A model generated the notes under the pieces. It saw only the letters and a list, made by a program, of their open reading frames with translations, was not told the origin of the DNA and did no database searches. Below are positions 5,433 to 22,505 of a stretch of DNA of 64,000 nucleotides, one piece after another. Source of the DNA: Verrucomicrobiia bacterium. GTDB lineage: Bacteria; Verrucomicrobiota; Verrucomicrobiia; Limisphaerales; DSYF01. Position 1 is the stretch's first letter. Each line of letters opens with the position of its first letter. Both the position numbers and the translations under genes were made by a program. The DNA lies in assembly GCA_035765895.1 (NCBI GenBank), contig DASTWL010000080.1:8597-72596 (forward strand), given 5' to 3'.

Positions 5433-5629
5433 CGCTGCATTGCCCCTTTGCCAAACTCCGCTACCTTGCCCCCGCGCGTGCAGCCGGCGGCCGTTGTTTG
5501 ACGGCAACTCGCTGTGATTCAGTCCGGTGCGTAGCTGATGCCCGGCTGAATAGCCGCCCTCCCAGACCAGTCGAATGAGACGAGGGTGAGCAGGCACGAA
5601 CTGTGATACCCTTAAAGTAGGTGAAGCGT

Positions 5630-7849
5630 ATGAAAACGAAACTGGTGGTGTTGGCGACCGCGATCCTGCCCCTGCTGGCCGGGTGCAACGAGGCGCGGTC
5701 CGAGCCGGAAGTCACTGGTGGCACGAATGTCGTGACCGCGATGCCCGCAGTGACAAACCCGCCGGCGGCCATGGCGACCGCGGCGCCCGACGAGGCGGTG
5801 CCCGCCGGACAGGTGGTGAACACTGAGAGTGCACCCCCGAGCAGTGTAAAGCTTTCCCCCGCGGCCTCAGAAATCGTGAAACTGGCCCAAGCGGGCGTGG
5901 ATTCGAGCGTGATGCTCGCCTACGTGACCAATTCGGTGCACACCTTCGGTCTGGCGGCGGACGAAATTGTCTATCTGAACGACCTTGGCATTCCGGCGCC
6001 CGTGATGACGGCGATGATCCAGCATGACCAACAAGTGCGCGAGGCTTCGCTGGCCGGCGCCACTGTGACTTCGCCCGCGACCCCCGCTCCGGCCCAGTCG
6101 GTCTGGGCCACACCCGCCACCGCGCCGGCCACCAACACGTGGCAACAGCCGGTGGCCGAGGCGGCCCCGGCGGCGCAAGTGGACACGACGACGACTGTGC
6201 CGCCCCCGCCGGCAGAGGAACGGCCGGATCAAACGACGGTCAATTACTTCTACGATTCGCTTTCGCCCTACGGCACGTGGATTGACATCGATGGCTACGG
6301 ACGTTGCTGGCGGCCCACGGTCGTGGTCACGTATCCCGGCTGGCGGCCGTATTGCAATGGTGGCCATTGGGTGTGGACGGACAGCGGGTGGTATTGGTAT
6401 TCGGATTACTCCTGGGGTTGGGCGCCATTCCATTATGGCCGGTGGTTTAGCCATCCCCGCTGGGGTTGGTGCTGGATGCCGGGCTCAACGTGGGGCCCCT
6501 CGTGGGTGAGCTGGCGTTATTCGGACGCTTACTGCGGTTGGGCGCCGTTGCCGCCTGCGGCGTATTACTCGCCCAGCATCGGCTTCAGTTACTTTGGCAG
6601 TTCGTGTGGCGTGGGGTTCTCGTTCGGGCTGACGTGGGATTACTTCACGTTCGTGAGCTATCACGATTTCTGCGGCCATCATTACGACCACCACCGTGTT
6701 CCGCGGCATGAAGCTGTCCAAGTTTACAACCACACGACCGTGGTGAACAACATCATCCGCGGCAACAACAACACCATCATCAACCAGGGCATCGCGCCGT
6801 CGCGGATCACCGCGGCGACCGGCACGGCCATCCATCCCGTCACCATTCGCGGCGTCACGGGCGTGCATGGCGGAACGATCACGCGGCACGAGGCAATTGC
6901 TTCGGATGGCAAGACACTGACCGTGGTGCGGGCCAATGTGCCGGGCAATGAACATCATGCGGTGACGGGTGGCACGCCGCTGCCGACCCGGGGCGGAGCG
7001 CAGGGCTTGACCACGGGCAATGCCGCGCCAACCAATCCTCGTCACACCGTGCCCACGCGCACGGTGACGCCGGGTCATAATACAGCCGGACCCGGAGCGC
7101 CGGGCAATGTCGCGAGTCATGTGCCCAACACGCCGCAAACGCCGGCCCCCGCTGCGACGCCGGCGCCGCCTGCCACACATAACGTGGCCGCTCCCACCGG
7201 CCCGTGGGCTCCGGCCTCGCCACCGCGGGCAACGCACCCGCCGCGTTCGGAAGTCAACGGCGGGGCGCTGATCATCCGCTCTGAACCGGCCGCGAATACG
7301 CGGGCCAACACGCCGGCCCCTGCGCCTGCCGCTCCGGTGCCCGTGCGGCAGCCGGCAACCACGACCACGCCGCCCCGTGTCAACACGCCCGCGGCCACGC
7401 CGTGGTTGAACAACACGCGGTCGCAGCCGCAACCGAACGTCAAAGCGAATCCGGCAAACCCGATGCCCAGCACGTGGCAGCACACGTCGCCGTGGAGCCA
7501 GAACACTGTTCGCGTGATCCGGCAGGCTCCACAGAACAATTACACGCCGGCCGCGCCGGCGCCCGTGACGCCGCCGCGCAACAATTATCAGGCGCCCACG
7601 TATCAGACGCCGAGCGCGCCGCGCATCGAGCGGTCCGCACCGGCCTATTCCGCCCCGGCGCCGGCCCAAAATTTCCGGTCTTACTCGCCCCCGGCCACGC
7701 GCAGCTACGAGCCGCCGCGGACGTATTCGGCGCCATCCTATTCACCGCCGCGCGCCCCGGCCGCGCCCCCGGCCGCGTCGCATTCATCGGGCCGGTCTTA
7801 CGACTCGGGCGGTTCCCGGGGCGGTGGAAAAGCCGAACGAGGGCGTTGA
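5630..7849 (+). CDS. Proline-rich lipoprotein with a Trp-rich YXWGXW-type repeat core
   Basis: Lipobox MKTKLVVLATAILPLLAGC, with AGGTGA 7 nt upstream of ATG 5630. The core is GHWVWTDSGWYWYSDYSWGWAPFHYGRWFSHPRWGWCWMPGSTWGPSWVSWRY. A Pro/Ala/Thr-rich tail of about 300 aa ends in SY/YS-PP repeats. Confidence 0.8.
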   Translation: MKTKLVVLATAILPLLAGCNEARSEPEVTGGTNVVTAMPAVTNPPAAMATAAPDEAVPAGQVVNTESAPPSSVKLSPAASEIVKLAQAGVDSSVMLAYVTNSVHTFGLAADEIVYLNDLGIPAPVMTAMIQHDQQVREASLAGATVTSPATPAPAQSVWATPATAPATNTWQQPVAEAAPAAQVDTTTTVPPPPAEERPDQTTVNYFYDSLSPYGTWIDIDGYGRCWRPTVVVTYPGWRPYCNGGHWVWTDSGWYWYSDYSWGWAPFHYGRWFSHPRWGWCWMPGSTWGPSWVSWRYSDAYCGWAPLPPAAYYSPSIGFSYFGSSCGVGFSFGLTWDYFTFVSYHDFCGHHYDHHRVPRHEAVQVYNHTTVVNNIIRGNNNTIINQGIAPSRITAATGTAIHPVTIRGVTGVHGGTITRHEAIASDGKTLTVVRANVPGNEHHAVTGGTPLPTRGGAQGLTTGNAAPTNPRHTVPTRTVTPGHNTAGPGAPGNVASHVPNTPQTPAPAATPAPPATHNVAAPTGPWAPASPPRATHPPRSEVNGGALIIRSEPAANTRANTPAPAPAAPVPVRQPATTTTPPRVNTPAATPWLNNTRSQPQPNVKANPANPMPSTWQHTSPWSQNTVRVIRQAPQNNYTPAAPAPVTPPRNNYQAPTYQTPSAPRIERSAPAYSAPAPAQNFRSYSPPATRSYEPPRTYSAPSYSPPRAPAAPPAASHSSGRSYDSGGSRGGGKAERGR

Positions 7850-14404: not shown

Positions 14405-15490
14405 GTGCAGTTGCCAAATCTCACCGCCCAACTGGAAGCCGGCACAGACCTGTCCGAAACGCAGGTTGCCGCCGCGCTCGACGCGCTCGTGAATGACGCG
14501 CTCGCCGTCGCGCAGAAGGCCGACTTTCTGGCGGCGCTGGCGCGGAAGGGCGAATCCATTGCCGAAATCACGGCCTTCGCCCGGCAGTTGCGCGAACGGG
14601 CAGTAGCCGTGCCCCTCGACCCGCGCACGCGCACGCGGGAGATTCTCGATGTCGTCGGCACCGGCGGCGACCGGCTGAACACCTTCAACATTTCCTCCAC
14701 CGCGGCGCTGTTGTGCGCAGCGGCGGGTGTCACCGTGGCAAAGCACGGCAATCGCGCGGCCACTTCGGCCTCGGGCAGCGCGGATGTGCTGGAATCGCTG
14801 GGCATCAACCTCCATCTCGCCCCGGCGGCGGCGGCGGCGCGGCTCCACGAGCGCGGCTTCGCCTTCCTGTTTGCGCCTAACTATCATCCGACCTTCCAGC
14901 ACATTGGCCCGGCGCGCAAGCTGTGTGCGGAACGCGGACAACGGACCATCTTCAATTTTCTCGGCCCGCTGCTGAATCCGGTCCGGCCCACCGCCATGTT
15001 GCTCGGCGTGCCCCGGCCGGACATGTGCGAACCCATCGCGCACGTGCTGCAATCGCTCGGCGTGCGGCGGGCCATGGTGGTATGTGGCGCCGTCCCGCCC
15101 GCCGAACCCGGCGCCGCTGGCCAGCCGGCCGTTCCGGCGTCGGTCCGCCATCTCGACGAACTTTCCACGCTGGGCGAATCGACCGTGGCCGAGTTCTATC
15201 AGGAGCGTGGCTTTGCGGTGTCCACGTTCAGCCCCGCCGATTTTCCGGTGCAACCCGCCCGGCTTTCCGATCTTGTGGGCGGCGACAAGCTGGCCAATGC
15301 GGAAACCGCCCGGTGCATTTTGCGCGGGGACGAGCGCGGCCCCAAACGGGATGCCGTGCTGTTGAACGCGGCGGCGGCCCTGTTTGTGGCGGGGCGTTGC
15401 CGGACGATGGCCGAGGGCTGGGAGCTGGGCGAAACTTTGATTGCCGACGGTCGCGCCATCGCCAAACTGACTGAGCTGATCCAACCGTGA
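14405..15490 (+). CDS. trpD: Anthranilate phosphoribosyltransferase
   Basis: ILDVVGTGGDRLNTFNISSTAALLCAAAGVTVAKHGNRAATSASGSADVLE. The start is GTG. Confidence 0.9.
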   Translation: MQLPNLTAQLEAGTDLSETQVAAALDALVNDALAVAQKADFLAALARKGESIAEITAFARQLRERAVAVPLDPRTRTREILDVVGTGGDRLNTFNISSTAALLCAAAGVTVAKHGNRAATSASGSADVLESLGINLHLAPAAAAARLHERGFAFLFAPNYHPTFQHIGPARKLCAERGQRTIFNFLGPLLNPVRPTAMLLGVPRPDMCEPIAHVLQSLGVRRAMVVCGAVPPAEPGAAGQPAVPASVRHLDELSTLGESTVAEFYQERGFAVSTFSPADFPVQPARLSDLVGGDKLANAETARCILRGDERGPKRDAVLLNAAAALFVAGRCRTMAEGWELGETLIADGRAIAKLTELIQP

Positions 15491-15960
15491 ACGAATCCTT
15501 GCCGGACCATCAACCAACGCTGGCGGCCGTGCCACCAATCATCGACGCGGGCAAGCCGTCTGCGCGGGCGGTGCGCGGGATTCTGTTGGCGCTGGGCGGC
15601 GGGCTGGCGGTTTTGCTGGGCGTGTTGTTCTGGTTCAATCCGGCGCGGCACGGTTTCTACCCGACCTGCGTCTTTCACCGGTTGACGGGCCTCGAATGCC
15701 CCGGCTGCGGCGGCCTCCGCGCGGTGCATCATCTCCTGCACGGCGAAATTCTGACGGCCTTCCGGTTCAATCCGCTGGTGGTCGTGGCCTTGCCGTTCCT
15801 CTTGATCTGGGGTATTCGCCGCTGGTGGTGCGGCCCGCGGGTGCCGCCACTTTCGCACCGGGTGCAGGCGCGCTGGGGGTGGTTTGCATTTGGGGTGCTG
15901 ATGGTCTTCTGGATCGTTCGTAATCTGCCGCTGGCGATGTTCCAACTGCCGCCCGGTTAA
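15487..15960 (+). CDS. DUF2752-type membrane protein
   Basis: CVFHRLTGLECPGCGGLRAVHHLLHGE flanked by TM helices. The GTG start overlaps the trpD stop. Confidence 0.7.
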   Translation: MNESLPDHQPTLAAVPPIIDAGKPSARAVRGILLALGGGLAVLLGVLFWFNPARHGFYPTCVFHRLTGLECPGCGGLRAVHHLLHGEILTAFRFNPLVVVALPFLLIWGIRRWWCGPRVPPLSHRVQARWGWFAFGVLMVFWIVRNLPLAMFQLPPG

Positions 15961-16053
15961 CAAGCTTGCCGCAGGTGGTAGAAAGTGCGGCGACAGGCTT
16001 GCCTCGCTGCGTGAGTTGGCGTAAAAGGCGCTCAATCAGAACAAAGGACCAGC

Positions 16054-16704
16054 ATGTATAAGATTCGCGGGGGTGACGGCAACGAATACGGACCAGTGAC
16101 GGCGGACGCCTTGCGGCAGTGGATCGCCGAGCGGCGCGCCAATGCCGAAACGTTGGTCCAACGCGAGGGCACCACGATGTGGCAGGTGCTGGGCAGCCTG
16201 CCGGAATTCGCTGATGTATTTGGAGCGGCGGGCGCGGCAGCTGGCACGGGGGGCGGGCCTGGTTTGACGCCGGGCGTGAGCGCGGATCAAGGCGCACAAG
16301 GTCTCGCCAAGCCGGCGGGTTGGGCGCTGACGGTGGTGGGCATTCTGGGCATCCTCTGGAACCTGGGGCAGGGCGTGTTCTACGCCGTGGGGGGCACGGC
16401 CACCAATCCGATGTTTCAAAATTTTCTGCAACGCAATCCCTCGTCGTCCGGCGCGATGAAGGCGGGATTCATCTTCGGGCTGGTGTTCGCGCTCGTCTTC
16501 GGCGTCGTGTGGGCGGGCTTTGTGGCTTATGCGGGCACCAAGCTGCGCCGGCTGGAATCGTGGGGCCTGGTGCTGACGGCGGCCATTCTTTGTCTGGTGC
16601 CGTGCTTTGGCAGCAGTCTGCCGGTCTGTTTTTTAAGCTTTCCAGTGGGCGTGTGGGTGATCATCGTGCTGTGCCAGCCCAAGGTGAAGAACGCGTTTAC
16701 CTGA
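16054..16704 (+). CDS. GYF_2 (DUF4339) domain protein 1, fused to an unassigned 4-TM module
   Basis: N-terminus MYKIRGGDGNEYGPVTADALRQWIAERRANAETLVQREGTTMWQVLGSLPEFADVF, then an Ala/Gly linker and hydrophobic helices. Confidence 0.8.
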   Translation: MYKIRGGDGNEYGPVTADALRQWIAERRANAETLVQREGTTMWQVLGSLPEFADVFGAAGAAAGTGGGPGLTPGVSADQGAQGLAKPAGWALTVVGILGILWNLGQGVFYAVGGTATNPMFQNFLQRNPSSSGAMKAGFIFGLVFALVFGVVWAGFVAYAGTKLRRLESWGLVLTAAILCLVPCFGSSLPVCFLSFPVGVWVIIVLCQPKVKNAFT

Positions 16705-16743
16705 ACTCCAAACGAGGCAGTCCCAATACAAGAAAGGCCATCC

Positions 16744-17250
16744 ATGTATAAAATTCTCGGCGGCGACGGCAAAGAATACGGCCCGGTTTCGGCGGAAACG
16801 CTGCAACAATGGGTCAACGAAGGGCGCGCCAACGCGCAGACGCAGGTGCAGGCCGAGGGCGGCACCGGCTGGACGGCCATGGGGCAATTGCCGGAGTTCG
16901 CGACGTTGTTCGCGCCGCCGCCCCCCCCGCCGCCGGGCGCGCCGGGAACCATCAGTCCAGCCACCGCCACCGCCGTGCCTCCCGGCACAAAAATTCCGAA
17001 CTATCTGGTCCAGTCCATTCTCGTCACATTGTGCTGCTGCCTGCCCTTCGGCATCGCGGCCATTGTTTACGCGGCGCAGGTGAACTCGAAGCTGGCTGCC
17101 GGTGATCTCGCCGGGGCGCAGGACAGTTCCAACAAGGCCAAGATGTGGTGCTGGATTGCCTTCGGCCTGGGCCTGGTGCTGAACCTTATCGTCGTGGCCG
17201 TCCAAATCATCGGCCTGGCGGCCAGCGGTGGAATGCAACACATGCACTGA
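16744..17250 (+). CDS. GYF_2 domain protein 2, fused to a CD225/dispanin-like module
   Basis: MYKILGGDGKEYGPVSAETLQQWVNEGRANAQTQVQAEGGTGWTAMGQLPEFATLF, a PPPPPPPGAPG linker, then NYLVQSILVTLCCCLPFGIAAIVYAAQV...AKMWCWIAFGLG. Confidence 0.8.
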   Translation: MYKILGGDGKEYGPVSAETLQQWVNEGRANAQTQVQAEGGTGWTAMGQLPEFATLFAPPPPPPPGAPGTISPATATAVPPGTKIPNYLVQSILVTLCCCLPFGIAAIVYAAQVNSKLAAGDLAGAQDSSNKAKMWCWIAFGLGLVLNLIVVAVQIIGLAASGGMQHMH

Positions 17251-17251
17251 A

Positions 17252-17752
17252 ATGAACGACGCGTTCAGGCTCGTGGGAGCGGACGGACGCGAATACGGCC
17301 CGGCGACGGCAGGACAAGTCAGCCAGTGGATTCGCGAAGGACGGGTGCACGGCCAAACCCGGATGAAACGGGAAGACGCGGCGGAGTGGACCACGCTGGG
17401 GCAACTTCCGGAATTCGCCGGCGAACTCAACGTTCCGCCCCGGCTGGCGCCGCCGCCGCCGGCCGTCGAAACCGGCCTGGCGCAACTCATCCCCTATCGC
17501 AACGGTCTGGCGCTGGGCGCCTACTATTGCGCCGTGTTTGCGCTGATTCCCGTCGTCGGCCTGCTGCTCGGCTGGGTGGCCTTTGGTCTCGGTCTGGCCG
17601 CATTGCGGTTTCTGCGGCGCAATCCCGCAGCAGGCGGCAAGGTGCATGCCTGGATCGGCATCGTGCTTGGCGCGCTCTGCGGCCTCGGCAACATCATGCT
17701 GTTTGCATTGCCGGTGGGCGCGGCGCTCCTGCGCCATCAGGCAGGCAGGTGA
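17252..17752 (+). CDS. GYF_2 domain protein 3, fused to a DUF4190-like module
   Basis: MNDAFRLVGADGREYGPATAGQVSQWIREGRVHGQTRMKREDAAEWTTLGQLPEFAGEL, a Pro-rich linker, then two TM helices with RRNPAAGGKVHAWIGIVLG. The start is 1 nt after the previous stop. Confidence 0.8.
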   Translation: MNDAFRLVGADGREYGPATAGQVSQWIREGRVHGQTRMKREDAAEWTTLGQLPEFAGELNVPPRLAPPPPAVETGLAQLIPYRNGLALGAYYCAVFALIPVVGLLLGWVAFGLGLAALRFLRRNPAAGGKVHAWIGIVLGALCGLGNIMLFALPVGAALLRHQAGR

Positions 17753-17754
17753 TC

Positions 17755-18444
17755 ATGTTCAAAGTCCTCGGCAATGATGGCCGGGAATACGGTCCGGTGG
17801 ACGCCGCCGTGCTGCGGCAGTGGATTCATGAGGGGCGCGCCGGAGCCGGCACGCAAATCCGCGAGACCGACGCGACGACGTGGCAGCCGCTCCAATCGCA
17901 TGCCAGTTTCGCTGATTTGTTTCAATCGCCCGCACCGCCTGTCAGCGCGGGCAGTCGCGGGCTTCCTTTGGCGGTGCGCATCATAGGCGTGGCGACACTG
18001 GCGGCGGGTTTGTTTATTTTGCTGCGCCAGATAGGCACCTGGTCCGCGTTGATGCAGCACTCCGTCAACCCGCGGCAATTTCCGCCCACGTTTATCCTGT
18101 TCCAGACGCTTGCGCTGCTCGGCGTCGTGGTGCGGCTGGTCAGCGGTGCGGGGCTGCTCCTTCGGCGGGAATGGGCGCGGCGTCTGGCACAGTATTACGC
18201 GGTCTTTGCCATCGCGTTGGGGCTTTATGGCCTGGGACAGACCTTCCTGTGGCTGACGACACGTGCCGGCTCGTTCAACGGGTTCACATCCATTACTTTT
18301 CTCGCCGGCATTGGTTTCAGTTTGGTGATGCTCGGGTTTGATGGGGTGACGATCCTGGTGTTGAGACGCCAGGATGTGCGGGCGGCGTTTGGGGCCGCCC
18401 GCCAATTGGACGGTAACGTTAGTTCCAAAACGGGGTTGAAATAA
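17755..18444 (+). CDS. GYF_2 domain protein 4, fused to a second unassigned 4-TM module
   Basis: MFKVLGNDGREYGPVDAAVLRQWIHEGRAGAGTQIRETDATTWQPLQSHASFADLF. The start is 2 nt after the previous stop. The upstream part of track ORF 17326.. is an out-of-context extension. Confidence 0.8.
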   Translation: MFKVLGNDGREYGPVDAAVLRQWIHEGRAGAGTQIRETDATTWQPLQSHASFADLFQSPAPPVSAGSRGLPLAVRIIGVATLAAGLFILLRQIGTWSALMQHSVNPRQFPPTFILFQTLALLGVVVRLVSGAGLLLRREWARRLAQYYAVFAIALGLYGLGQTFLWLTTRAGSFNGFTSITFLAGIGFSLVMLGFDGVTILVLRRQDVRAAFGAARQLDGNVSSKTGLK

Positions 18445-18517
18445 TACTGGGCCGGCGTGACGGGCCGGGTTTATTGAAATTGCGCTCAGTGCAGTCAACC
18501 TCGTGAAGGGAGCAACC

Positions 18518-19015
18518 ATGTTCAACATCATTGGAGCAGACGGCAAGGCCTACGGCCCGGTGTCCCGGGAAGTAATTGGCCAGTGGATTCGGGAGGGCCG
18601 GGCGAACGGCGCCACGCCGGCGCAACCCGCTGGCGCGACCAGCTGGCAGACGCTGGCGACGCTCCCGGAATTCGCCGACCAGTTTTCGGGCGGGCCCAGT
18701 GCGCCGCCCACCCTGAGCCCGCCGCGGCTGGATCTCGCGGCGCGCGCCAGCAACAAAATCGCGGCCGGCGTTTGCGGCCTGTTGCTGGGTGGCTTGGGCG
18801 TGCACAAATTCATTCTCGGCTACACCAATGCCGGCCTCATCATGCTCGCCGTCACCCTGGGCGGGTTCCTGCTGGGCTTTGCCACGTGCGGCGTTACGTT
18901 CCTGGCCTGCTCGGCGATGAGCATCGTTGGGCTGGTCGAAGGCATCATCTATCTCACCAAAACGGACGAGGAATTCGTCCGCGTTTACGTGGACGGCCGG
19001 AAGGAATGGTTCTGA
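18518..19015 (+). CDS. GYF_2 domain protein 5, fused to a TM2-like module
   Basis: MFNIIGADGKAYGPVSREVIGQWIREGRANGATPAQPAGATSWQTLATLPEFADQF, a Pro-rich linker, then AAGVCGLLLGGLGVHKFILGYTNAGLIML. Confidence 0.8.
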   Translation: MFNIIGADGKAYGPVSREVIGQWIREGRANGATPAQPAGATSWQTLATLPEFADQFSGGPSAPPTLSPPRLDLAARASNKIAAGVCGLLLGGLGVHKFILGYTNAGLIMLAVTLGGFLLGFATCGVTFLACSAMSIVGLVEGIIYLTKTDEEFVRVYVDGRKEWF

Positions 19016-19033
19016 ACAACGGGAGGACGCAAC

Positions 19034-19882
19034 ATGTATCACATCATTGGAGCGGATGGAAAAACTTACGGACCGGTTCCCGCCGACGAAATTCGCCAGT
19101 GGGTCCGGGAAGGGCGGGCCGGCGGGCAGACCCAGGTTCGCGCCGAAGGCAGCAGTGAATGGCAAAAGCTGTCCGTGCTGCCGGAATTTGCCGACCTGTT
19201 TGGCGACACTGCGGCCGGTTCGCCGCCGGTTTTGTCAAACCCGCCCGCGGGCGCGCCTCCCAATCCCGATGCCCTGGTGGCCGAGGTGCTGGCACGGCAT
19301 CCCGTCGTTGACGCCGGTGCGTGTTTCAGCCGCGCGTGGACGCTGGTGAGCAACCGCTTCTGGCTCAGCGTGGGTGTCGGCCTGGTGGGGGCGTTGTTGA
19401 CCAATGTGCCGTTCCTCTACGGCGTGGCCTACGCCGGCATGTTTTGGTTTTTCCTGCGGTGCATCCGGGGCGAGTCCGCCAAGTTTGAGGACCTGTTCGC
19501 GCCGTTCAGTGTGGCCTTCCTGCAAACCTTTCTCGCCGGGTTGGTGGCTTCCCTGCTGGCGTCGCTCGGGTTCATGTTGTGCATCATTCCCGGGCTCGTA
19601 TTGATGGCGCTGTGGACATTCACCTGGCCGTTGCTGATGGACAAGCGGCTTGAATTCTGGCCCGCGATGGAAGTGAGCCGGAAGGTGCTCTGGCCGAATA
19701 TCTGGGGTGTGTTGTGGCTGTGGGTGCTGAGTTTTCTCATCATGTGCCTTGGCCTGTTGTGCTGCTACGTCGGCGTGTTTGTGGCATTTCCGCTGGTCAT
19801 CGCCGCGCAGGCCTACGCCTATGAAGATTTCTTCGGTCGCAAGCCGGTTTCGCGGGGGCTGGCCCTGCCCACCGCACCGTGA
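19034..19882 (+). CDS. GYF_2 domain protein 6, fused to a DUF975-like multi-TM module
   Basis: MYHIIGADGKTYGPVPADEIRQWVREGRAGGQTQVRAEGSSEWQKLSVLPEFADLF, a Pro-rich linker, then a membrane domain of about 190 aa (FSRAWTLVSNRFW...IRGESAKFEDLF...). Confidence 0.8.
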   Translation: MYHIIGADGKTYGPVPADEIRQWVREGRAGGQTQVRAEGSSEWQKLSVLPEFADLFGDTAAGSPPVLSNPPAGAPPNPDALVAEVLARHPVVDAGACFSRAWTLVSNRFWLSVGVGLVGALLTNVPFLYGVAYAGMFWFFLRCIRGESAKFEDLFAPFSVAFLQTFLAGLVASLLASLGFMLCIIPGLVLMALWTFTWPLLMDKRLEFWPAMEVSRKVLWPNIWGVLWLWVLSFLIMCLGLLCCYVGVFVAFPLVIAAQAYAYEDFFGRKPVSRGLALPTAP

Positions 19883-20295
19883 GCGCCGGGAATTGTGCGT
19901 GTCCTGCGGACGTGCCCTGGGCTAGGGTGAAGGCCGTGAAAGTTTCGTTTCTCCACGGTCCCCTCACGCCTGCGCGCGCGCGCACCTTCGCCCTGCTCAA
20001 TCAATTTGCCACGCCGGGCCTGGGCTCCCTGCTCGGACGGCGCTGGGTGTCGGGCGGCGGCCAACTGTTGCTCGCCGTGGCGGGGTTTCTGTTGTTCTGC
20101 GCGTGGTTCGTCAACGTGCTCCAGCAATACTACGGCCTGATCGACAGTGATCGACCGGTGCATTTGCATCCCGGCTGGGCGGCGGCGGGCGTGGGTGTTT
20201 TTGCGCTGGCGTGGTTGTGGGCGCTGGTCACCAGCATCAGTTTGCTGCGCGAAGGGCGGCGCAACGAGCGGGAAGGCCGGCTGCCGCCGCTTTGA
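19879..20295 (+). CDS. Small 2-TM membrane protein with no GYF module, closing the GYF array
   Basis: The GTG start overlaps the stop of the preceding gene by 4 nt. There are two clear hydrophobic helices (LLLAVAGFLLFCAWFVNVL; AAAGVGVFALAWLWALVTSISLL). The start is uncertain. Confidence 0.5.
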   Translation: MSAGNCACPADVPWARVKAVKVSFLHGPLTPARARTFALLNQFATPGLGSLLGRRWVSGGGQLLLAVAGFLLFCAWFVNVLQQYYGLIDSDRPVHLHPGWAAAGVGVFALAWLWALVTSISLLREGRRNEREGRLPPL

Positions 20296-20336
20296 CGCCG
20301 CTTGCAACCCGGCACGTCCCGCCGCACTTTGTGGTC

Positions 20337-20615
20337 ATGGCCAAGCTGACCACCGCCCAAATCAAGGCCGCTCTGGCGTCGCTGCCGGAGTGGAAAAAAC
20401 AGGGTTCTCTGATTGCGCGCACCTTCGTCTTCAAGGACTTTCCGGCGGCGTTGCGGTTTGTGAACAAGGTGGCCGTGGCCGCCGAAAAGGCCTGGCACCA
20501 TCCCGACATCGACATTCGCTGGAACCGCGTCACGCTGGCGCTGACCACGCACGACGAAGGCGGACTGACCGCCAAGGATTTCCAGCTCGCCCAAAAGTTC
20601 AACCGGCTGGCGTAA
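20337..20615 (+). CDS. phhB: Pterin-4-alpha-carbinolamine dehydratase
   Basis: LPEWKKQG...FKDFPAALRFVNKVAVAAEKAWHHPDIDIRWNRVTLALTTHDEGGLTAKD matches the PCD/DCoH signature. Start at ATG 20337. Confidence 0.85.
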   Translation: MAKLTTAQIKAALASLPEWKKQGSLIARTFVFKDFPAALRFVNKVAVAAEKAWHHPDIDIRWNRVTLALTTHDEGGLTAKDFQLAQKFNRLA

Positions 20616-21876: not shown

Positions 21877-21953
21877 GCAGGCGGTAAAATTTTCATTGAA
21901 TCAGGCGATTGACGCGCAAAGATGCGGCAAACGCACGAACGCTGCCTCCCATC

Positions 21954-22505
21954 ATGAACACCCTGCCGCCTTCGATTAAACCCGTTGCCCCTCCGCCCAC
22001 GTCGCAACGCTGCGGGCTTGCCGTATGGAGTCTGGTGCTGGGAATTGCCGCGCTGGTGCTCAGCGTGGTGTGCGTGGGGCCGTTGCTCGCCATTCCGGCG
22101 GTGATTTGCGGGCACAAAGCCCTCGGACGCATCAAACGCTCCGGCGGCGTGCTGGCCGGTGAAGGGCTCGCGACGGGTGGCCTCATCACGGGTTACATCG
22201 GCATTGCGCTGATACCGATCATGCTGCTGCTTTCGGCGATTGCGGTGCCGAATTTCATTCGCGCCCGCAACATTGAGCAACGCAACCGGTGCATCAACAA
22301 CCTGCGGCAGATCGATGCCGCGAAGCAGGAATGGGCGCTGGAGCGCGAAAAGCAGCAGGACGCCGTGCCCACGTGGAATGAGTTGTCGCCCTTCTTGAAA
22401 ACGAATTACCAGGCCCTGGTCTGTCCCAAGGGCGGCACCTACACCATCGGAGCGGTGCAGGATTTGCCCACGTGCTCCGTGCCCGGGCACACCTTGCCGG
22501 AGTGA
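21954..22505 (+). CDS. DUF4190-like membrane anchor fused to a pseudopilin-like globular domain
   Basis: Two TM helices with GHKALGRIKRSGGVLAGEG (DUF4190-like). They are followed by IMLLLSAIAVPNFIRARNIEQRNRCINNLRQIDAAKQEW, which resembles the C-terminal half of a type IV pilin N-terminal helix plus head. Confidence 0.65.
   Translation: MNTLPPSIKPVAPPPTSQRCGLAVWSLVLGIAALVLSVVCVGPLLAIPAVICGHKALGRIKRSGGVLAGEGLATGGLITGYIGIALIPIMLLLSAIAVPNFIRARNIEQRNRCINNLRQIDAAKQEWALEREKQQDAVPTWNELSPFLKTNYQALVCPKGGTYTIGAVQDLPTCSVPGHTLPE

Follow-up and report, generated by a model that had tools for sequence, protein, structure and literature searches.

The GYF domain of GltJ (AgmX), a component of the Agl-Glt gliding machinery of Myxococcus xanthus, is cytosolic, binds a proline-rich sequence of AglZ with micromolar affinity via its beta-sheet face, and does not bind the canonical CD2 peptide (Attia et al. 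2024, PMC11135422). In the same study, nearly all bacterial GYF domains were found to lack the name-giving G-Y-F residues and to lie mostly N-terminal to membrane modules, often in conserved operons with transmembrane proteins (PMC11135422). Bacterial dispanins, the proteins with a CD225 domain, share CC and GxxxG motifs and have no known function, and S-palmitoylation is absent on bacterial proteins (PMC3282796). Here we describe a locus of a Verrucomicrobiia bacterium (assembly GCA_035765895.1, contig DASTWL010000080.1, positions 8,597 to 72,596; this whole stretch of 64,000 nt is referred to as the window) in which both kinds of domain occur. It contains an array of six genes, G1 to G6, each encoding an N-terminal GYF_2 module joined to a different small membrane module. 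The array is preceded by a gene for a DUF2752 membrane protein and followed by P8, which encodes a GYF-less protein with two transmembrane (TM) segments. The locus offers a well-founded and testable starting point for work on bacterial dispanins and on the specificity of bacterial GYF domains.

The link between DUF2752 and CD225 extends far beyond the window. We collected 80 loci from a contig scan with G2 and mapped them by hidden Markov model (HMM) and phmmer searches using the window modules; adjacency was defined as a DUF2752 gene ending within 1.5 kb of the CD225 gene. DUF2752 adjoins CD225 in 67 of the 80 loci, with the order CD225, DUF2752 on the same strand in 62; the 13 other loci are often found at the end of a contig. 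The set includes 11 phylum-level groups as labelled in the records (Verrucomicrobiota, Planctomycetota, Acidobacteriota, Pseudomonadota, Hydrogenedentota, Gemmatimonadota, Lentisphaerota, Actinomycetota, Thermodesulfobacteriota, Bacteroidota and Bacillota), and the pair is present in the cultured organisms Chitinilyticum aquatile DSM 21506 (locus L034) and Gemmata algarum (L027). Most CD225 proteins of these loci carry no GYF module. GYF_2-CD225 fusions adjoining DUF2752 were also found in Bacteroidota, Bacillota and Phycisphaerae; in the Armatimonadota loci with such fusions the sequence ends before any DUF2752 gene could show. Other loci have a different adaptor, as in Zn-ribbon-CD225 or RING-GYF-CD225 proteins. 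The recurrent upstream neighbours of the pair in other phyla are DUF4190, Zn-ribbon, FeS_assembly_P and T2SSG, the last with Pfam matches in 6 of the 86 upstream open reading frames (ORFs) scanned (L022-L086). No conserved downstream neighbour was seen in these phyla, and the flanks vary by locus. In L032, L064, L068 and L073 (Acidobacteriota), an N-terminal zinc ribbon combined with a type-IV-pilin-like helix (AAIAIPNF/L) is encoded just upstream of the CD225-DUF2752 pair.

The Verrucomicrobial relatives have variable arrays with two to eight GYF genes. The recurrent members are GYF-CD225, DUF2752, GYF-TM2, GYF-YciC-like and P8. The trpD gene lies upstream of the array in L007, L010, L011 and L021; the genes for pterin-4a-carbinolamine dehydratase (PCD) and galK lie downstream in L007, L008 and L009, and galK alone in L012. 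P8 is located at the 3' end of arrays L007-L019 and is kept by arrays with no PCD/galK match (L010, L011, L013-L016, L019). The original prediction, made from the window alone, held that the set was retained as one unit and proposed a survey of relatives for the DUF2752 link. Both ideas stand: the relatives keep variable arrays, several of them with trpD and/or PCD/galK flanks, and the link is conserved more strongly than had been supposed. DUF2752 had also been described as a bracket of the array; it looks more like a hub. Each of the six Verrucomicrobial DUF2752 contexts that were looked up adjoins GYF_2 genes, and the modules beside them are CD225, TM2, DUF4190, UPF0259 or of no family. Because the GYF_2 neighbours are constant and their modules vary, DUF2752 looks like the constant element, or hub, and the GYF-tagged proteins look like interchangeable partners. 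The most expanded relative, L021 (1-7230), has trpD and DUF2752 followed by eight consecutive GYF_2 genes, of which two have DUF4190, one CD225, one a G1-like module and four no assigned module. One array, L011 (CAZQNQ010000018.1), is labelled 'uncultured Bifidobacterium sp.' and is close to that of the Verrucomicrobiota locus L010, the GYF modules of the CD225 genes being 95% identical; it probably comes from a mislabelled or contaminated bin.

A common N-terminal domain on six different C-terminal modules, as first proposed, is supported by Pfam searches and by an alignment of the six modules. GYF_2 (PF14237) was detected in all six proteins, with E-values of 1.7e-9 (G1), 7e-10 (G2), 2e-7 (G3), 8.9e-5 (G4), 1.4e-5 (G5) and 8.3e-10 (G6). 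The scores of G1 (37.8 bits), G2 (38.9), G3 (31.1) and G6 (38.7) exceed the gathering score of 25.8, and those of G5 (25.2) and G4 (22.6) are just under it. The alignment, in which the sub-threshold G4 and G5 are included, comprises 57 columns, of which 14 are invariant; the identity to G2 is 44-63%, and the modules start at residue 1-4 of their proteins. At the DNA level the modules form a six-copy repeat family. Since the identity within this family is merely 62-75%, we regard the copies as old and maintained by selection, and not as recent duplicates. An HMM built on the six found no further GYF module in the window.

The AlphaFold (AF2) model of the G2 module, calculated from an alignment of 89 sequences, has a pLDDT of 86.5 and the order strand-strand-helix-strand-helix, with strands at residues 2-5, 11-15 and 34-37 and helices at 17-26 and 50-56; a short bridge near residue 44 is under the 3-residue cut-off for listing. 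Homologues found with the 57-aa profile are all at most 105 aa long and mostly fragments, and they were used as the alignment for structure modelling, not for architectures. In a Foldseek comparison with the PDB, GYF domains are 13 of the 16 top matches (Smy2, GltJ 7z3c with TMq 0.70, GIGYF1/2, CD2BP2), and the model thus assigns the GYF fold to the G2 module. The closest PDB sequence match of the module profile is the GltJ GYF domain, 7z3c. The canonical G-Y-F tripeptide is not present; the position reads G-R-A/V in all six modules, and the eukaryotic GYF profile PF02213 gave weak matches in G2 and G6 (E of 0.011 and 0.029). These two observations do not support a canonical eukaryotic GYF domain with an aromatic PPG-binding pocket, and the GltJ domain uses a different face. 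Pfam found no Zn-ribbon in G1-G6, and the ZnR-linker-GYF switch of GltJ is absent from these proteins. Because the GYF domains have no signal peptide, and because Zn-ribbon or RING domains take their position elsewhere, we predict them to be cytoplasmic, on the same side as the DUF2752 and P8 tails. The mean identity of GYF modules is 50% within one genome versus 53% among same-type orthologues. In the GYF tree, close genomes group by C-terminal type and distant ones by genome clade, but the 57 columns are too few to decide, and the phylogeny was dropped as a means of separating old fusion from recent shuffling.

Among the membrane modules, CD225 in G2 and TM2 in G5 are the two proposed assignments that stand above their Pfam thresholds. 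G2 matches CD225 (PF04505) with an E-value of 2.3e-27 and 95.3 bits (threshold 27.1), and it has hydrophobic segments at 86-114 and 132-166. BLASTP aligns it with human IFITM3 (2e-12) such that CCC97-99 falls on C71-C72 and G120-D-L-A-G124 on the oligomerisation motif G91-x3-G95; the match to PRRT1 (PDB 9zks) is 1.1e-9. With the profile match, the two segments, the CC and the GxxxG all in place, G2 is by sequence a bona fide CD225 homologue. Its residues 108-151 (window 17065-17196) give a sub-threshold Pfam SNARE match (4.4e-4), as does L057:7239-7730 (3.1e-3); the match recalls the 'SNARE mimicry' reported for the CD225 domain of IFITM3 (PMC11730294). G5 matches TM2 (PF05154) with 3.3e-9 and 37.3 bits (threshold 27.9) and has orthologues in L007 and L009-L019. 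For G3 the suggested similarity to DUF4190 (PF13828) exists at 4.5e-4, but its 20.3 bits are below the 35-bit threshold. G3-like modules in other phyla are also sub-threshold for DUF4190 (18-31 bits), and they are found upstream of CD225 and fused to a Zn ribbon. Clear GYF-DUF4190 fusions occur in L008, L010 and L021. G6 had been described as DUF975-like, and no such match was found at E <= 0.1. The best family is UPF0259, with a weak 1e-3, followed by the NCBIfam YciC model (7e-5); the G6 orthologues L090 and L091 match PF06790 (UPF0259/YciC) more firmly, at E <= 1e-5. Pfam gave no family for the membrane parts of G1 and G4 or for P8 even at E <= 10. Homology between the G1 and G4 membrane modules was ruled out (BLASTP E = 1.1), and the 4-TM module of G1, judged by hydropathy, is seen again in L021. 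Hydropathy gives all membrane modules only short loops, with no extracytoplasmic domain of any size, and so speaks against a role as receptors that sense ligands.

The DUF2752-type CxxC membrane protein ahead of the array was correctly recognised in the original prediction (PF10825, 74.6 bits, threshold 27; Table 1). In an alignment of 83 homologues, C61, C71, P72, C74 and G75 are invariant and H81 and H85 nearly so, and the C-x9-C-P-G-C-G motif is present. The AF2 model (pLDDT 82.5) contains three long helices and a Cys cluster, and no PDB fold match was found for it. In the model, C61, C71 and C74 together with H81 and H85 could constitute a metal or redox site. The N-terminal tail is variable, with a mean pairwise identity of 0.26 versus 0.48 for the remainder of the protein.

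Short proline motifs, with the joint form x-P-P-[VIRPK]-[ILM], were found on the two GYF-less members. The pattern x-P-P-[VIRT]-[ILM] occurs in 35 of 68 N-tails of DUF2752 homologues (shuffled mean 1.4), and the motif is absent in 48 of 49 DUF2752 genes of non-GYF loci in other phyla. The C-tails of P8 homologues contain PP in 35 of 43 cases, and PP-hydrophobic or PPx-hydrophobic in 28 (shuffled mean 8.5); the PP tail of P8 is present in L007-L011. Both tails are predicted by the positive-inside rule to be cytoplasmic, and the predicted topology of P8 is N-in/C-in. Behind the GYF domain, the linkers of 41 out of 48 array proteins contain PP, its median distance from the domain being 7 residues, and 18 of 48 contain PP[VIRTP][ILM] (2.3 after shuffling). 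The original proposal of the linkers as GYF ligands thus has circumstantial support. In the window, all GYF proteins except G1 have PP in the spacer behind the domain. The linkers had been described as Pro/Ala-rich in every protein, which does not apply to G1 with its Gly-rich linker. Compared with the linkers, the tails of DUF2752 and P8 appear as additional and cleaner candidates for GYF ligands.

Our preferred reading, which we hold tentatively, is that the products of the locus form a chromosomally encoded, non-enzymatic complex of membrane proteins, which is held by contacts between GYF domains and proline motifs and centred on DUF2752 and CD225. The reading builds on domain content, the GYF fold, cross-genome linkage, motif conservation and a predicted same-side topology; from these we infer that the proteins bind each other, form a complex and are transcribed together, and also what their physiological role may be. 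Its core would be a set of vertically inherited small inner-membrane proteins around DUF2752 and its widely conserved partner, the CD225/dispanin protein. Every DUF2752 partner in this lineage would carry a cytoplasmic N-terminal GYF domain, be it the CD225, TM2, DUF4190-like, YciC-like or one of the two unassigned proteins. The GYF domains could read, in trans, the x-P-P-x-hydrophobic motifs that DUF2752 and P8 carry, and perhaps each other's linkers too. Multivalent contacts of low affinity might then gather the membrane modules into one hetero-oligomeric membrane patch. The role of such a patch is probably membrane organisation (oligomerisation, local curvature or order), and not catalysis or ligand sensing, because the CD225 member keeps the CC and GxxxG of IFITM3/PRRT-type proteins.

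Several observations weigh against this reading. The CD225-DUF2752 pairs lack GYF in most phyla, which makes GYF an accessory to the core function. G1 has no PP, and the Verrucomicrobial sub-clade L013-L019 has GYF arrays with no PP tail on DUF2752 or P8. DUF2752 contexts with and without the PP motif both adjoin GYF genes, and DUF2752 thus does not need the motif to be associated with GYF; the arrays without a tail also show that GYF arrays and the PP tail of DUF2752 do not strictly go together. High-GC genomes often have Pro/Ala-rich spacers, and the shuffling controls given above ignore relatedness among the sequences. The topology is based on hydropathy and the positive-inside rule only. 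Among bacterial GYF domains, that of GltJ is the only one characterised. Finally, a weak hairpin between G4 and G5 could divide the array into two transcripts.

The arrays without PP tails would be easier to understand if the six products were independent receptor-like or anchor proteins, whose GYF domains recruit a shared, unlinked and cytosolic proline-rich partner with a role in scaffolding, polarity or signalling. The array would then be a series of alternative membrane anchors for one soluble partner, and not one complex. GltJ and AglZ are a precedent, Attia et al. proposed 'signalling between compartments' for bacterial GYF domains with diverse TM modules in operons, and the nearly equal identity of GYF modules within genomes and among orthologues fits a shared ligand. 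We nevertheless consider this explanation unlikely: the modules have almost no extracytoplasmic sequence for sensing, no conserved soluble Pro-rich gene accompanies the arrays in the loci and flanks examined, and it explains neither why DUF2752 is so tightly linked nor why DUF2752 and P8 bear PP motifs.

A paralogous array with no physical coupling is an improbable alternative. GYF_2 would be a generic head that aids folding, insertion or stability, and the array would have arisen by duplication and module swapping. Composition and order do vary among the relatives, Zn ribbon and RING replace GYF elsewhere, and the modules have no known function. However, plain tandem duplication fails because the C-terminal modules are unrelated families, and the GYF copies, although old, are conserved. 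The DUF2752 linkage that holds over 11 phyla is a further point against it, and the conserved PP motifs fall exactly on the GYF-less members.

An IFITM-like antiviral or entry-exclusion function, in which CD225 and its partners alter the inner membrane and block phage genome entry or fusion, is very improbable, since G2, although a true CD225 homologue with the IFITM3 oligomerisation motif (and although mycobacterial IFITM homologues reportedly restrict influenza when expressed in human cells, PMC4488726), stands in an array of which none of the eight proteins matches a PADLOC-DB family at E <= 0.1, with housekeeping and syntenic flanks (trpD, PCD, galK) and no defence island in the window and the Verrucomicrobial relatives, with no flanking family, apart from the four upstream neighbours named above, that recurs more than 9 times among the 86 upstream or 75 downstream ORFs scanned in other phyla, and with the CD225-DUF2752 pair essentially absent from 50,697 phage records, IMG/VR pattern scans and 72,556 plasmid records. 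A phage, plasmid or defence-island origin has no support from the same PADLOC search and the same near-absence.

The preferred reading of a GYF-held membrane complex has a more far-reaching version, which we regard as doubtful. DUF2752 and CD225 would be an obligate and ancient two-component module in at least 11 phyla and the source context of the animal IFITM/PRRT dispanins, which Verrucomicrobia would have grown into a network of GYF readers and PPx-hydrophobic ligands, with up to eight GYF proteins and with motifs on DUF2752, P8 and the linkers. If this is true, Verrucomicrobia would have in this network a prokaryotic parallel to the scaffolding by proline-motif adaptors that takes place at the membranes of eukaryotes.

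Table 1. Genes and sequence elements of the GYF_2 array and its surroundings (window coordinates)
Feature	Coordinates	Strand	Description
DUF2752 membrane protein	15487..15960	+	157 aa; Pfam 6.5e-21; proposed hub
V-P-P-I-I motif in DUF2752 N-tail	15529..15543	+	About 14 aa before TM1; window copy AAVPPIID; candidate GYF ligand
G1	16054..16704	+	GYF_2 (16054-16224), Gly-rich linker, 4-TM module without family
G2	16744..17250	+	GYF_2, poly-Pro linker, CD225/dispanin module
G3	17252..17752	+	GYF_2, PPRL/PPPP linker, DUF4190-like module
G4	17755..18444	+	GYF_2, short linker, 4-TM module without family
Weak terminator-like hairpin	18452..18468	+	In the 73-nt G4-G5 gap; 5-bp stem; consensus scan alone
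G5	18518..19015	+	GYF_2, PPTL/PPRL linker, TM2 module
G6	19034..19882	+	GYF_2, PPVL linker, UPF0259/YciC-like multi-TM module
P8	19936..20295 (alternative start 19879)	+	GYF-less 2-TM protein; last array member; no Pfam family
L-P-P-L at P8 C-terminus	20281..20292	+	Window copy ends ...GRLPPL; candidate GYF ligand
DUF4190 and pseudopilin-like protein	21909..22505	+	GYF-less; DUF4190 1.2e-14; three genes downstream

The six GYF genes with the flanking DUF2752 and P8 are eight ORFs, all on the forward strand. An ORF check confirmed the predicted order, coordinates and gaps of the six consecutive genes, which span 16054-19882 with intergenic gaps of 39, 1, 2, 73 and 18 nt, and likewise the overlap of the DUF2752 start (GTG at 15487) with the trpD stop in GTGA. 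The predicted overlap of the last gene with G6 is found with the P8 start at 19879 and lost with the start at 19936 that is used by gene callers, the start of P8 being ambiguous. Because the whole locus was found again in six independent assemblies and the codon differences between strains are 23 synonymous versus 11 nonsynonymous, the genes of the array are real. In L001 (8074-8724), a close strain, a stop codon ends G4 13 codons sooner than in the window; G3 of this strain, which differs in length by one codon, has diverged more than any other array gene (95.6% identity).

The same-strand run with short gaps extends from trpD to the DUF4190 gene ending at 22505, and its operon boundaries cannot be set by sequence alone. 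The hairpin in the G4-G5 gap, the sole intergenic terminator-like hairpin found in the consensus scan, is a possible internal transcript boundary, as a consensus match with no evidence of function. A sigma-70 promoter scan gave no site, the sigma-70 consensus being uninformative for this phylum.

The P8 ORF overlaps the PCD ORF (window 19936-20615), and two clusters of P8 homologues (P0308 and P0352) are called as P8-PCD fusions of 195-198 aa with PF01329. These fusions could be real or could be read-through in gene calling. One JGI record names a P8 homologue 'TM2 domain-containing YozV'; a relationship to TM2 was rejected, as hhalign of the P8 family against TM2 modules gave a probability of 0.2%. 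The DUF4190 protein at 21909-22505 has a pseudopilin-like C-terminal part ('AIAVPNFIRARN', weak PilA-type match), and its N-tail contains LPPIM/LPPSI, which is not kept in the L009 orthologue. In L010 and L011, the same architecture of DUF4190 and a DUF1559-like part is found with an N-terminal GYF_2 inside the arrays. With low confidence, the protein is a possible peripheral member of the system.

A 742-aa lipoprotein with the signal MKRMKTKLVVLATAILPLLAGC is encoded at 5621-7849. Its core is rich in Trp, Tyr and Gly, and its C-terminal tail is long and rich in Pro, Ala and Thr. This tail had been suggested as a GYF ligand, and the suggestion fails: the lipobox signal peptide (LLAGC) marks the protein as exported, and it is no plausible partner for GYF domains with a predicted place in the cytoplasm.

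The original prediction was not aware of a description of such an array. The general combination of GYF and membrane modules, including its operons, is already known, because it was described by Attia et al. (2024). For the specifics, namely the DUF2752 hub, the CD225-DUF2752 pair across phyla, the expansions to six to eight genes and the PPx-hydrophobic motif on GYF-less members, we found no published report, fig. S4 of Attia et al. being outside this search. The term 'DUF2752' did not occur in the literature searched. The array would extend the single characterised bacterial GYF case, GltJ-AglZ, and it is a compact natural test bed for bacterial GYF recognition, with six readers and a few defined candidate peptides in one locus. 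To our knowledge, neither a function nor a partner has been reported for bacterial dispanins, from which the IFITM and PRRT proteins are presumed to descend, and the conserved CD225-DUF2752 pair gives a concrete handle on their function.

Among known systems, GltJ, the best PDB sequence match, shares with the array a GYF domain that lacks the G-Y-F residues and lies in the N-terminal, cytoplasmic part of a membrane protein. It differs in its ZnR-linker-GYF switch, its long periplasmic part and its partners MglA, MglB and AglZ; no ZnR was found here, and neither the locus nor the flanking genes examined include an Mgl- or AglZ-like gene. The array, in turn, has six GYF proteins in a row, tiny membrane modules and DUF2752 as a constant neighbour. 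The eukaryotic adaptors CD2BP2, Smy2 and GIGYF1/2 share the fold, and the YGP...W...EG core of the modules aligns with CD2BP2, but G-R-A/V replaces GYF and the GltJ domain uses the beta-sheet face. The Zn_ribbon proteins with DUF4190 or CD225 in Planctomycetota, Lentisphaerota and Bacillota have the same modules beside DUF2752, again with a small cytoplasmic N-terminal adaptor; there the adaptor is a zinc ribbon or RING, and no multi-copy arrays were seen. Like IFITM3, PRRT1 and PRRT2, G2 has the double Cys, the G-D-x-x-G and two hydrophobic segments, and like the eukaryotic dispanins it has a cytoplasmic proline-rich region N-terminal to CD225. Eukaryotic dispanins have palmitoylated Cys residues, and it is separate adaptors with WW or SH3 domains that read their Pro-rich N-terminus. 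In G2, a domain of the proline-reading type is fused in cis, and the partner is DUF2752.

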